A stretch of DNA of 64,000 nucleotides from Octopus vulgaris (GCA_951406725.2 OX597822.1:67022001-67086000), one strand, 5' to 3'. Positions 10,513 through 62,448 are shown, counted from the first letter of the stretch. Made by a program: numbers and translations. The notes: generated from the sequence alone by a model not told the origin.

Positions 10513-10808
10513 TATCTGTAAATGTAATATGCCACAATTATTCGGTAGTCATGATAAAACTCCGAGTTTCGGATGTCGGGGTGGAAATCCACGCTGCCGT
10601 CTCTTTAGTTGTCTGGCCCTCGGAAAAAAAAATGCTAAGAAAATTCCATAACATTTTGCCATAGCATTTTCATAGCATAATTTTCATACCATTTTTTCCG
10701 ATGACTGGATAACTGAAGAGATGGCGGCGTGGATTTCCACCCCGACATCCGAAACTCGGAGTTTTATCATGGATACCAAATAACTGTCACATATTACATT
10801 TACAGATA
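10513..10808. mobile_element. Head-to-head foldback with hammerhead-bearing arms (Penelope-like terminal repeat)
   Basis: Imperfect inverted arms 10513-10628 / 10693-10808. Confidence 0.8.
10708..10768 (+). ncRNA. Type I hammerhead ribozyme motif
   Basis: Stem I GATAA/TTATC; core CTGAAGA 10713-10719; long stem II GATG..CGG.GTGGA/TCCAC.CCG.CATC; GAAA 10751-10754; stem III ACTC-G-GAGT; GUU cleavage triplet. Confidence 0.7.
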
Positions 10809-11473
10809 AATTCCTCTCATTACAAAATATCGAGGTCTCTTTATTTCTTTTGTTGTCTTACAATTTCTATCAATATATATATATATATATATATATATAT
10901 ATATATATATATATATATAGGTATGTGTACATGACTATGTGCATATATGTATATATGCACACTGAACGTCCGTATATTTTTTGTACGTGTATATATTTGT
11001 AAATGATTAAGTTTTGATGTTTTACAGTTCTTTTACCATCGATGACATGAAAGTATAACATCCCACCTATGTTTTAATACTTATGTTTCCTAAACTATGA
11101 AGTATCTATGAAATAATGCCTTAGAAACATAGTTATGACTTTTAATATGATACCCTCCGAAACGCATCACTAAACTAAATAAGTTGTCTGGGAATCGATA
11201 AATATAAGAAAATCTTAGTCAACATGAATACCATATTATGAAATACAAAGCTCCGTATTATCTACTTGGAAATTTAGATCAGTAACAAGTAATAATGCTT
11301 TTCGCTATTGTTGATGACTTTGATGAGAGGTGTTACTTATATGATCGAGATTCCGTAAGGAAATAAAGCAACAAATGGAGACTGTATCAAATCTATTTAT
11401 TGCTATTTACGAGATATTCGTGATTAAGATCAAGACCCGAGGCCGGTATCACTGACATTAGGACAAGTGTTGT

Positions 11474-12020
11474 CATTGCATCATCATCCTTATAATCAAT
11501 ATCATCATCATCATCATCATCATCATCATCATCATCAACATCATCATCGTCGTCGTCGTCGTCGTCGTCGTCATCGTTGTAGTTCTCGTCGTCTCTGTAA
11601 ATGCCGCCGTGGCCGATGTCGTCACCGTCTTCGACGTCATTTCACAATCGTCTTCGTTGTTTTGTTCATCTTCGTCGTTGTGCTCGTCCCTAGTATCGAC
11701 ATCATCATCGATCTCATGCTCATCGAAGCAATAATTACATTTTACTGACATCTCTTTAACTATTGTCATATTCATCATTATCTTCATCGTCGCCGTCACC
11801 ATCATCATCAGCAGCAACAGAAACAGTACTTTTATCATCGTCGTCGTTGTCGACATCATAATCATCATCACCATCATCACCATCAACATCAACATCATCA
11901 TCAACAACAACAACGACGACGTTGTCGTCGTCGTTGTCAATGTCGCTGTCATCATTGTCGTCGTCACCATCATCATCAGCACCACTACCACCACTACCAC
12001 TGCCACAATAACAATCACAA
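11474..12020. repeat. Degenerate (CAT)n/(CGT)n/(CAA)n trinucleotide field
   Basis: Visible trinucleotide arrays. Confidence 0.85.
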
Positions 12021-12737
12021 CAAAATCACCATTTGAATCGTAATAGCGATATTTATATCTGCCTGGTCAATCATCGTAACAAAACGAATTTGTGGTCGGT
12101 GGGTGGGGACCACCAGCACCAACTGTCGCGACTATCATCAACACTATGCGCCTATGTTTAGATTTTGAAACAAAACGTTGCACGTGACACGCACGGCACT
12201 TTCTACCGACAAACTACTGATTATAACCAGCTTTACAGTCAGATGTCACCGAAGACAGTATTTTTATGGACAAATAAAATTTAATATAAAATAAAAATTA
12301 CTGAAAGGAAGGAGGAATTAAATTAACTGTCGTGTGACACGAGTGTGGATTTAGAATGGAATGTGGTGGTGTTTGGTAGTGATTGGCATTCAATCGAAAC
12401 AAGAATTCTTATTAGAAATTCATAGACATACTCTTTTCTAGAGTCTAAATTATTCTAAGATCATTCCTGTAAAATTTACTGTGATTTTCTGTACGATTAA
12501 ACTTGGTGTGAGCATCTGCTGGAGCCATAGTTATAACAAGATTCCTGTCTTTATGTATGTGTATGTATATAGCCATCACTCTCGGCTTACGCATGTATAT
12601 GAATGTATGTGTGTATCTCTGTATGTTTGAATCTGTATTTCATTGCCGTGTGGTTATGTGTAGATATTTTATATGTGGAAAACGAGTTAGAGATGAAACT
12701 AGTGATGTTTTTTACTAATTCAGTGTAGTAGGATTTT

Positions 12738-13340
12738 AAGGCGATGAGCTGGCAGAAACGTTAGTGCGCTGGGCGAAATGCTTAGCGGCATTTCGTCTGC
12801 CGCTACGTTCTGAGTTCAAATTCCGCCGATGCCGACTTTGCCTTTCATCCTTTTGGGGTCGATAAATAAAGTACCAGTTACGCACTGGGGTCGATATATT
12901 CGTCTTAATCCGTTTGTCTGTCCTTGTTTTTCCTCTCTGTGTTTAGCCCCTTGTGGGTAGTAAAGAAATAGGTATTTCGTTTGCCGCTACGTTCTGAGTT
13001 CAAATTCCGCTGAGGTCAACTTTGCCTTTCATCCTTTCGTGATCGATAAATAAAGTACCAGTTACGCACTGGGGTCGATGTAATCGACTTAATCCCTTTG
13101 TTTGTCCCCCTCTATGTTTAGCCTCTTGTTGGCAATATAGAAATAAGAAACGTTAGCACGCCGGCCGAAATGCTTAGCGGTGTTTCGTCTGTCTTCTGAG
13201 TTCAAATTCCGCCGAGGTCGACTTTGCCTTTCATCCTTTCGGGGTCGATAAATTAAGTACACGTTGCTTACAGGGGTCGATCTAATCGGCTGGCCCCCTC
13301 CCTCAAAACATTTCGGACCATGTGCCTAGAGTAGAAAAGA
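12738..13340 (+). mobile_element. SINE family B, head-to-tail trimer
   Basis: Three iterations of TTCTGAGTTCAAATTCCGCCGAGGTCGACTTTGCCTTTCATCCTTTCGGGGTCGATAAAT.AAGTAC, with units starting at about 12738, 12973 and 13147. Confidence 0.9.
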
Positions 13341-13409
13341 ATGTAATAAGACTTCTCGTGTAAAATATCAAAGTTACTCCAACTCTAGAAGCATCAACAT
13401 AATGGCTTC

Positions 13410-13613
13410 AAATTCTGTCACAGGGGCTGCAATTTTGGGGGAGGGGATGAGTCGATTACATCGACCCCAGTGTTCAATTGGTACTTATTTTATCGACCCC
13501 GAAAGGATGAAAGATGAAGTCGATCTCGGCGGAATTTGAACTCAAAACGTAGCGACGGAGGATATACCGCTAAGCATTTCGTCTAGCGCGCTATTCTACT
13601 AGCTCACTGCCTT
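13410..13613 (-). mobile_element. SINE family B copy
   Basis: Reverse complement of the 12738 unit. Confidence 0.85.
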
Positions 13614-13639
13614 AAAAGCATTTATATGATATTCTCTAC

Positions 13640-60240: not shown

Positions 60241-60247
60241 GCTTATA

Positions 60248-60629
60248 TCTTTACATATAAAACTGAAGTTGTGTGTCTGTCTCCTACGATTTAGATTCGT
60301 AACTACTCCCACATTTTGCGGTGCAGTTTCACCAAAAGCGGGTATCTTAAAGTCGTGAGTCATATCAAGTCCTTCTGGGTATTAGCGCGCGTCTACGATG
60401 AGTCTGCGATTTTAAAAAAATTTACCATCATATTTTTCCATTTTAATGCATTTTTTTCGCTATTATATGAGGGAAGTAACCCTCTAAAAATATCTACGAT
60501 GTGTCAACGATTTAAAAAAAAAATTTACCTTAATTTTTTTTCCATTTTTAATGCATTCTTTTGCTATATTTTGGCTATAACTCTCTAAAAATGCTTATAT
60601 AGTTATTTCCCTTACAAATCCGAGCAACG
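60248..60629 (+). mobile_element. Non-autonomous Helitron (family of 47966-48172), truncated in its 3' hairpin
   Basis: 5' A|TCTTTACATATAAAACTGAAGTTGTG; 3' AACTCTCTAAAAATGCTTATATAGTTATTTCCCTTACAAATCCGAGCAACG, lacking CCGGG...CTAG. Confidence 0.85.
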
Positions 60630-60644
60630 AAAATTCAACAAAAT

Positions 60645-60682
60645 CTGTTACTCTGAGTTTCTCGTTGCCGTTCATCAGACAG
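60645..60682 (-). ncRNA. Type I hammerhead ribozyme motif (mirror of 61939-61976)
   Basis: Exact reverse complement in the left arm. Confidence 0.68.
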
Positions 60683-61938
60683 TTTTTGCTAGAATGGAAC
60701 ATATATATTAATTCAATCTATACTCTTACAAACGCTACACCTTTAAAAAGAAATGGACTTGTTTGATTGGCCCTTTAGAAAAAACGGTCAATCTTCGAGC
60801 GATAAACAAAAAGGTCAAAAATATATGTATATATATATAAAAAACTTATAAAAATTATAAAATCCGAGGAAAAAACCGAGGAAAAAACCTATTGCCGTTA
60901 ATGAAGACAGTACAAATTAATGCATAGAAATTAAACCTGTTATAAATACTGCAATACATATTTATATTAAAATCCACATATATATATCAACATACACAAA
61001 AGGATGCGCGTAAACGCCATACATACATATACAGACGTATGAATATGAATCTAAATTATACACATAAAAGCATGTGTACATATATTCACGCAAACCGTCT
61101 CGCACGCAAGCTAAAATTCATCTACGTAGCAATTCTCATATACTGAGCAAGTCTTTCGTATATATTTTTATTAATGCACCCATTTTTTAAAAGCAATGTT
61201 TTTTTTAAAAAAAGCAATGTTGTCAAATTTAGAATGTTTATATAAGTTTGTATATAGCAAAGCATATATATTTGTAAGCATGCGTATCTGTGTATGTGTA
61301 AGTGAAAGTATGCTTGTGCTTAAGCACGCATACACACGACGGTATGTATATGTATCAATTCAAACTTGTGTATGTATACTGGCCTCTATAGATGCCAATA
61401 ATATCGCTACAAGTTTCCCCCCCTCCTTCGTTTCTTTTTTCTCTCTTTCCCTTTCTTTCGTTCCCCCTCCTTGCTCAGTATATGAGAATTGCTACATAGA
61501 TGAATTTTAGCTTGCGTGCGAGACGGTTTGTGTGAATATATGTACACATGCTTTTATGTGTATAATTTAGATTCATATTCATACGTCTGTATATGTATGT
61601 ATGGCGTTTACGCGCATCCTTTTGTGTATGTTGATATATATATGTGGATTTTAATATAAATATGTATTGCAGTATTTATAACAGGTTTAATTTCTATGCA
61701 TTAATTTGTACTGTCTTCATTAACGGCAATAGGTTTTTTCCTCGGTTTTTTCCTCGGATTTTATAATTTTTATAAGTTTTTTATATATATATACATATAT
61801 TTTTGACCTTTTTGTTTATCGCTCGAAGATTGACCGTTTTTTCTAAAGGGCCAATCAAACAAGTCCATTTCTTTTTAAAGGTGTAGCGTTTGTAAGAGTA
61901 TAGATTGAATTAATATATATGTTCCATTCTAGCAAAAA

Positions 61939-61976
61939 CTGTCTGATGAACGGCAACGAGAAACTCAGAGTAACAG
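61939..61976 (+). ncRNA. Minimal type I hammerhead ribozyme motif
   Basis: Stem I CTGT/ACAG; CTGATGA 61943-61949; short stem II CG-GCAA-CG; GAAA 61960-61963; stem III ACTC-A-GAGT; GUA triplet. Confidence 0.68.
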
Positions 61977-62049
61977 ATTTTGTTGAATTTTCTGCTGCTT
62001 AAAATAAAGTATATATATATATATATATATATTGTGTAATAAATAATAT

Positions 62050-62448
62050 ATATAATAATAAATATTAGGGAATAAATCCAAATTTACAGGGAAAAATCAG
62101 ATTTAGGATTGAATCCAATTTTATAGTAAAATATAATATACTATAATATTAATTAGAGACAAAACCATTATTATGCAAATCAAACAAAGAAAGACTTAAT
62201 CCAATACATACAACATTTTATATAAATTAAATATAATTAAATTTATATATATTAGTCATTTCAAATTTATATCTTAAAAATATTGATTATATTTTAGGTC
62301 TTGAAACCACCTGATGAATGTCAATAGAAGTGACAAGAAACGATCGTAGTGGATATCTTAATTATATTTAATTTATATAAAATTTTTTATGTATTGGATT
62401 AAGTCTTTCTTTGTTTGATTTGCATAATAGTGGTTTTGTCTCTAATTA
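62050..62448. mobile_element. Foldback repeat with a hammerhead in the loop (Penelope-like terminal repeat)
   Basis: Arms about 62150-62240 / 62358-62448; same family as 3515-3776; bounded by (TA)n. Confidence 0.8.
62307..62352 (+). ncRNA. Type I hammerhead ribozyme motif
   Basis: Stem I CCAC/GTGG; CTGATGA 62311-62317; stem II TGTCA/TGACA; GAAA 62337-62340; palindromic stem III ACGATCGT; GUA triplet. Confidence 0.78.

Follow-up and report, generated by a model that had tools for sequence, protein, structure and literature searches.

Hammerhead motifs in an Octopus vulgaris window and their probable origin in four families of Penelope-like elements

Described Penelope-like elements and the octopus loci

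Minimal hammerhead ribozymes of the dimer type have been published from the repeats of Penelope-like elements (PLEs) (Cervera and de la Pena 2014, PMC4209133), and supplements S1/S2 of Craig et al. (2021, PMC8557442) list Hydra-1_Obim of Octopus bimaculoides with a hammerhead and a (TA)n target. The origin of PLE inverted repeats and one-sided tails, and the role of the hammerhead, are stated as open in the available text of PMC8557442 and PMC11167929. Here we describe four hammerhead-bearing loci in 64,000 nucleotides of Octopus vulgaris DNA (GCA_951406725.2, OX597822.1:67022001-67086000; the window), labelled as families F1 (10708), F2 (19492), F3 (61939, with its mirror at 60645) and F4 (62307). 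With a probability of about 0.85, these loci are 5'-truncated, mostly two-armed inserts of four endonuclease-bearing PLE families, and the hammerheads are the ordinary ribozymes of their pseudo-long terminal repeats (pLTRs). A preliminary description of the window had proposed several families of separate short, non-coding elements mobilized by Penelope-like machinery, and had known of no cephalopod catalogue of them. Its link to PLEs was borne out, every family being tied to a protein-coding parent in the genome, and so was its count of several families with a dimer-type stem III, of which there are four. Its separate non-coding elements were for the most part not, as longer copies of F1, F3 and F4 join Hydra-type open reading frames (ORFs), and the Hydra-1_Obim entry had already placed a family of this kind on record.

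F1–F4 are new families of an already known kind of PLE, and no non-coding system of a new type is involved. Since PLE terminal repeats are expected to contain hammerheads and the catalogue already has one Octopus Hydra family, the ribozyme finding is itself ordinary. What we add is the pairing of a long with a short 3' end in two-armed inserts, and a tRNA-like head at which most head-bearing F2 copies begin.

F1, F3 and F4 resemble the Hydra clade as described in PMC8557442. They share with it the motifs RWK, DKT, CxCx5C, CxxC and CxH without CCHH, the (TA)n targets, a 3' hammerhead with palindromic stem III and often unpaired 10.1/11.1 bases, and inverted truncated copies with a one-sided tail. 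The pattern of stems I and III in F3 is that of Hydra-2_Amil of Acropora, and the ribozyme sequence given there for Hydra-1_Obim was found in none of the three. Elements of the Hydra clade typically total less than 3 kb, a trait that is typical and not defining, whereas F3 measures 3,358 nt and F4 exceeds 5 kb; tails are 30–40 nt in the clade but 65–85 nt in the octopus families. Many published Hydra hammerheads have unpaired 10.1/11.1 bases, which are T and T in most of the families listed (PMC8557442), whereas F3 and F4 have A and A, and F3 further differs in being a large and very young expansion.

F2 resembles the Penelope/Poseidon type. It has the consensus minimal hammerhead reported in PMC4209133, with an extra base before G10.1-C11.1 and a loopless palindromic stem III; its parent has a DKG/YVDD reverse transcriptase (RT) and a GIY-YIG domain with internal cysteines, and its copies show two 3' ends ~35 nt apart and AT-rich, non-microsatellite targets (PMC4209133, PMC11167929). 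It differs in having a terminal repeat with a tRNA-like head, bearing A and B boxes, and an (AAT)n tract; the available text of PMC4209133 and PMC11167929 describes no such head. Metazoan non-LTR (long terminal repeat) retrozymes likewise place a type I hammerhead in short non-coding DNA, with a proposed dependence on PLE enzymes, and the Schistosoma Sm-alpha element, which resembles a short interspersed nuclear element (SINE), combines a polymerase III promoter with a hammerhead (PMC7229834; bioRxiv 10.64898/2026.07.22.740005; PMC6765202). Retrozymes as described there form head-to-tail tandem arrays, in contrast to the octopus loci, which are single or head-to-head ends of ORF-bearing elements; no head-to-tail array of short hammerhead units was found at the four window loci, nor among the genomic copies listed.

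For octopus repeats, a published annotation counts 31 Penelope-like families with recent activity, and its available text does not mention ribozymes (PMC13282606). Literature searches on octopus hammerheads (compare the supplement entry for Hydra-1_Obim) and for a tRNA-headed Penelope SINE returned none, and subscription journals, Repbase or the repeat library of PMC13282606 could hold one; a search for twin priming in PLEs also found none, and subscription journals and Repbase could hold a report.

Hammerhead motifs and their protein-coding parents

The window was searched with a minimal type I descriptor, which comprised a stem I of at least 4 bp, CTGANGA, a stem II of at least 2 bp, GAAA, a palindromic stem III and UH, and tolerated at most a single unpaired base at either flank of stem II as well as a loopless stem III palindrome. 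This descriptor, drawn up only after the five window sites were known, found five sites (cores in Table 1), compared with a mean of 0.015 and a maximum of 1 in 200 block-wise dinucleotide shuffles of the window; folds as good are not as common in shuffled sequence. A stricter first descriptor returned one site of the five (10713) and missed the other four because it required a monomer stem III and the closing pair. In an Rfam cmscan of the window, the 150 matches listed out of 268 included no hammerhead family; all of these scored below the gathering score and nearly all were microRNA models on microsatellites. The core CUGANGA/GAAA/UH, stems I and II and a palindromic stem III are all present in F1–F4, and judged from their sequence and position the five motifs are real hammerhead motifs located in the 3' terminal repeats of 5'-truncated PLEs. 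Four further sequence-distinct minimal hammerheads were seen in DNA flanking other genomic loci (L079, L187, L214 and L279).

The sites had been put forward as complete type I hammerheads. The descriptor confirmed all five motifs, but as monomers they are incomplete, with a stem III that is weak or impossible. The stem III palindromes are those originally given (Table 1), and the pairs that a monomer can form there number 0 of 2 in F2, 2 of 4 in F4, and 3 of 4 in both F1 and F3. In predicted folds, monomers do not adopt the hammerhead. Two-strand cofolding gave the dimer hammerhead as the lowest-energy structure of F4, and also of F3 when 12-nt flanks were included, and we predict that the F1–F4 hammerheads fold only as dimers. 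The closing pair G10.1-C11.1 is present in F2 and possible in F1 with a bulge. The only real covariation found was between F4 and a sister family, in which stems I and II are kept, loop II differs in length and stem III changes on both sides from ACGATCGT to ACAATTGT, or to ACGATTGT in one copy. Within families no such two-sided change was found.

Copies and parents were sought in the assembly containing the window (2.8 Gb in 227 contigs), from which loci with L-numbers were taken. The best other genomic matches were 90–93% identical for F1, 92–96% for F2 and 93–100% for F4, and for F3 all 40 of 40 were 100% identical. Exact ribozyme copies numbered 2,317 for F2 and 3,674 for F3, against 0 for reversed-sequence controls. 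Thousands of such stubs could pass in annotation for host non-coding RNAs or foldback DNA transposons.

The parent of F3 was found at L128, where two direct ribozyme repeats 3,357 nt apart flank an open frame of 727 residues in a unit of 3,358 nt. The window arms are 97.5% (direct arm, last 860 nt of the 3' untranslated region, UTR) and 99.0% (inverted arm, 523 nt) identical to this unit. In a tblastn search with the F3 ORF, 58 of the best 61 matches (33,085 candidates) were stop-free and 95–100% identical, and these matches, together with the 3,674 identical ribozymes, mark F3 as a very young, large expansion. Among 30 F3 loci with the full ORF, 28 had an upstream repeat or inverted arm and nine a 76-nt tail. 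The protein carries RWK, DKT, YRDD, CxCx5C, CxxC and CxH, which is the Hydra definition given in PMC8557442. Its AlphaFold model had a predicted local distance difference test (pLDDT) score of 91.9, with telomerase TERT as the best Foldseek match (E 1.4e-9), and a GIY-YIG-type region was read from motifs and from a precomputed PF01541 match on a homologue. A Pfam scan of this protein, of protein P0002 and of the Poseidon N-terminus returned no family, and searching PDB sequences with alignment A1 found nothing. In a search bearing on horizontal transfer of F3, the closest protein in the database was 58% identical. Contigs from four sequencing runs, presumed to be RNA, cover the F3 unit but are blind to ends, strand and level; their ~100-fold depth over the bin of the F3 tail may reflect copy number. 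With dozens of intact, near-identical Hydra ORFs and thousands of young insertions, F3 offers material for testing.

For F4, ORF remnants ~3.1–3.6 kb upstream in L275–L278 were 82–94% identical to an intact sister family of 838–841 residues with the Hydra motifs KWK, DKT, CxCx5C, CxxC and CxH; the F4 element has a 3' UTR of ~3 kb. Hydra ORF remnants lie upstream of F1 in L246, L249, L252, L262, L263 and L270 (six of 30 loci picked by upstream sequence) and downstream in the tandem case L274. They carry RWK, CxCx5C and CxxC, with NKT at the DKT position in the single copy that covers it. A broken Poseidon-type ORF ends shortly upstream of F2 in L125 and L201/L282 and begins downstream of it in L195 and L198; six-frame reading of the broken copies L125 and L201 gave DKG, YVDD and a CCHH-type GIY-YIG without a zinc-finger linker, and RVT_1 matched at E 1.2e-8. 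Tandem pLTR-ORF junctions were present for F1 (L274), F2 (L195, L198) and the F4 sister family (L179). The Hydra proteins of these families are only 30–45% identical to one another. The preliminary description suggested linking each family to a full element with RT and GIY-YIG; F3 has an intact frame and F4 an intact sister family, and for F1 and F2 only broken ORFs were recovered. The Poseidon ORF in L009/L125 had been considered as the F1 parent and was excluded by strand and position; it belongs to F2.

Two further PLE groups were encountered. L187–L189 (C2:168270791, C8:21324051, C5:142946991) hold a Hydra-type family with open frames of 955–962 residues, ~50% identical to F4. At L123:2157-4033, next to an F4 copy, lies a broken ORF of a PLE that has DKG, belongs to another RT type and is possibly Neptune-like.

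Insertion ends and the origin of two-armed inserts

Among the copies listed, the 3' ends of F1, F3 and F4 are fixed and the 5' ends scatter, and longer copies reach upstream into Hydra-type ORFs; the stubs are therefore truncated autonomous elements. F2 shows this pattern of ends as well. A (TA)n tract lay within 30 nt of the 3' end in 25/30 copies of F1, 30/30 of F4, 25/30 of F3 (29/30 if interrupted tracts are included) and 2/30 of F2, against a window background of 4.7%; the F1, F2 and F4 sets include the window copy. The preference for (TA)n put forward earlier thus applies to F1, F3 and F4 and fails for F2. Both insert ends lay in (TA)n in 7/11 rows for F1, 8/9 for F3 and 13/13 for F4. 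F2 inserts at non-TA sites with target duplications of 11–13 bp: duplications, mostly of this length, flanked 20/26 of its two-armed inserts compared with 10/650 control pairs, and both arms therefore derive from one event.

Every family shows a long and a short 3' end, both of them fixed, which are ~35–85 nt apart and lie downstream of the site of predicted cleavage. A long end was paired with a short one in 57 of 76 two-armed loci, namely 11/12 for F1, 8/14 for F3 (not counting L291, in which the long arm continues into the ORF), 12/14 for F4 and 26/36 for F2, whose short end was taken as positions 232–248 and counted by hand; L093/L113 was counted once. Pairs of two long or two short ends were absent among the 76. 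This strict rule makes a sharp prediction for an in vitro assay.

We infer that a two-armed insert represents two primings, one per start site, on both target strands. As described in PMC11167929 (Frangieh et al. 2024), the Poseidon_Ac protein in vitro performs cleavage and extension on both strands. Its two start sites are internal to the RNA and delimit the genomic tail; the RNA that it uses is mainly uncleaved, and the protein helps its hammerhead. By analogy, the octopus element protein would bind RNA read through a tandem pLTR-ORF junction, nick both target strands and prime reverse transcription at sites within the RNA, one strand using the long site and the other the short. Usually each cDNA would terminate early, and the far ends of the two would be joined into a head-to-head foldback, so that the sense strands, and with them the ribozymes, would face outward. 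Wherever the core is copied the template must be uncleaved at the ribozyme, so cleavage would be slow, conditional or protein-assisted. The ribozyme itself would likely process tandem or read-through transcripts and not set insertion ends. When 5' ends were examined in 30 tail-bearing F3 copies, none lay within 3 nt of the predicted cleavage site; 28 extended upstream past it (nine of these being internal tandem copies), so the templates of insertion were mostly uncleaved.

Several observations weigh against assigning the loci to functional PLE ribozymes and two-armed insertion. Published PLE hammerheads cleave weakly even as dimers, according to PMC4209133. The dimer hammerheads of F1 and F2 lie 5–12 kcal/mol above the cofold minimum, F3 and F4 lack the G10.1-C11.1 pair and have A opposite A at that position, and sequence changes inside families resemble decay without covariation. 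In 19 of the 76 two-armed loci an arm falls short of both ends, and these loci are top-scoring matches, not a random sample, the F1 and F3 queries having fixed the end of one arm. The parents of F1 and F2 are known from broken ORFs only, and clades were assigned by motifs alone. Individual old hammerhead copies are probably dead.

Of the alternatives, the one that fares best is unlikely as a general account and likely wrong for F1, F3 and F4. In this view each locus would be a short ribozyme element in its own right, non-coding and similar to a retrozyme or SINE, which relies on borrowed Penelope enzymes. The scattered 5' ends of F1, F3 and F4 speak against it, as does the lack of tandem arrays of short units noted above, and its evidence comes from F2. 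Among 30 F2 loci selected by the head alone, 28 have their start no more than ~15 nt from the head, and 12 form foldbacks with its 5' end at the centre; an A box was present in 21 of the 30, with a B box in 17 of those 21. The window F2 copy has no TTTT run in its sense strand, compared with two or three in F1, F3 and F4, and the 2,317 exact F2 ribozymes contrast with mostly broken matches to the Poseidon ORF. Yet in L201 and L222 the Poseidon 3' UTR runs from the stop codon through 28 nt to the tRNA-like segment with both boxes, then (AAT)n and the ribozyme, so the head sits inside the 3' UTR of the autonomous element itself. A natural 5-bp hairpin at the 5' end of the head could account for truncation and snap-back with no involvement of polymerase III, the query for head-bearing copies began inside the head and therefore favoured junctions that recreate it, and the window F2 copy is headless. 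The head pattern fits a SINE-like derivative transcribed by polymerase III and also a hairpin-induced break; if the idea of a non-autonomous element has any application, it may be to the tRNA-headed F2 unit alone. Other (AAT)n-ending elements sit within the (AAT)n tract of the F2 repeat in L038, L044, L049, L052, L055 and L058. We take the ORF pieces of these elements to be like those of Dong/R4 long interspersed nuclear elements (LINEs).

Somewhat less probable still is an origin of the foldbacks by snap-back, in which a single cDNA, by folding on itself or switching template, is copied from its own strand, or repair does this after insertion, and the tail comes from second-strand resolution with no second priming. 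The perfectly centred foldbacks at the F2 head hairpin (12/30) would follow readily from it, as would a stub at 3514-3790 whose arms join at the stem III palindrome, and the tail has been attributed to endonuclease-mediated resolution of an intermediate (PMC8557442, in the text available). Simple snap-back does not yield the many unequal arm pairs in which either arm may be the longer, nor inverted arms that hold sequence upstream of the 5' break in the direct arm, as in several F3 loci (L291, L296, L303). The second arm, moreover, ends at a fixed site that matches the second in vitro start site reported for another PLE (PMC11167929). Two primings remain our preferred origin of the two arms.

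That the motifs are chance matches or catalytically dead relics without a role is very improbable: the Rfam result, the monomer folds and the F3 5' ends, none of them at the cleavage site, would be in keeping with it, but five sites stand against 0.015 in shuffles, one core and topology recurs at the equivalent position of four families with differing stems, stem III has changed in a compensatory manner between F4 and its sister family, and Hydra hammerheads of like form are published (PMC8557442, in the entries available).

A broader proposal, which we put forward tentatively and regard as somewhat less than even, is that PLE insertion is an obligately asymmetric two-strand reaction, in which a dimeric protein makes one long-site and one short-site priming. 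This would explain inverted repeats and the one-sided tail in the Hydra and Poseidon clades. In the same proposal, a Poseidon terminal repeat would have acquired a polymerase III promoter of tRNA-like form and given rise to a SINE with a hammerhead, one that relies on Penelope and not LINE machinery.

Feature map and neighbouring repeats

The arms and hammerheads of the four loci are listed in Table 1. F1, F3 and F4 are head-to-head inverted repeats; F2 is single in the window, with neither a foldback nor adjoining (TA)n. The preliminary description had reported three head-to-head loci with ribozymes running outward towards (TA)n. The foldbacks were found as described, but an intact ribozyme on both arms occurs in F3 only, and although the direct arms of F1, F3 and F4 do run into (TA)n, the left arm of F3 ends 17 nt short of the element end and abuts another repeat. 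No long informative ORF was found at the four window loci.

Table 1. Positions of PLE arms and hammerhead motifs in the window.
Feature	Position	Strand	Description
F1 inverted arm	10513..10644	-	Ends at short 3' end; hammerhead mirror ~10553-10613 with broken core CTAAAGA
F1 direct arm	10680..10872	+	Hydra-clade PLE 3' end; long 3' end (~65-nt tail), then (TA)n 10873-10919
F1 hammerhead	10708..10768	+	Core 10713; long bulged stem II; stem III ACTC-G-GAGT; predicted cleavage after 10763
F2 insert	19469..19626	+	5'-truncated Penelope/Poseidon-type PLE 3' end, long 3' end; without tRNA-like head, (TA)n or clear target duplication
F2 hammerhead	19492..19537	+	Minimal; core 19497; extra A before G10.1-C11.1; loopless stem III ACGT inside AACGTT; predicted cleavage after 19532
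F3 inverted arm	60629..61151	-	99% identical to intact element; lacks last 17 nt and (TA)n
F3 mirrored hammerhead	60645..60682	-	Intact; core 60678; predicted cleavage after 60649
F3 direct arm	61151..62009	+	Final ~860 nt of 3' UTR, from a young Hydra-clade PLE; short 3' end, then (TA)n
F3 hammerhead	61939..61976	+	Core 61943; A on either side of a 2-bp stem II with GCAA loop; stem III ACTC-A-GAGT; predicted cleavage after 61972, 37 nt upstream of short 3' end
F4 inverted arm	62053..62240	-	Long 3' end (~80-nt tail); no hammerhead
F4 direct arm	62215..62446	+	Hydra-clade PLE 3' end; short 3' end, then (TA)n 62447-62583
F4 hammerhead	62307..62352	+	Core 62311; A on either side of stem II; stem III ACGATCGT; predicted cleavage after 62348

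The repeat abutting the left arm of F3 (60200-60629) is of a different kind and has a further copy at 47983-48034; we presume from its look that it is Helitron-like. This repeat and the F3 arm both appear to have lost ~17 terminal bases, together with the intervening (TA)n, perhaps by a microhomology deletion.

Other PLE fragments were seen in the window. The stub at 3514-3790, also two-armed and set in (TA)n, matches the end of the intact Hydra sister family (840 residues) at 92–95% identity and lacks the ribozyme core. Adjoining it, at 3739-4167, is a frame of 142 residues whose C-terminus we take to be like that of a LINE reverse transcriptase. A broken Hydra-type endonuclease remnant at 21981-22500 (+) directly follows (TA)n, contains a 31-nt tandem duplication and is 28% identical to F3 residues 508–614 (E 5e-8). 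At 22533-22636 a piece of the F2 3' end lies inverted and lacks the ribozyme. Finally, an inverted-repeat structure of 730 nt at 12992-13721 is made of an abundant SINE-like repeat.

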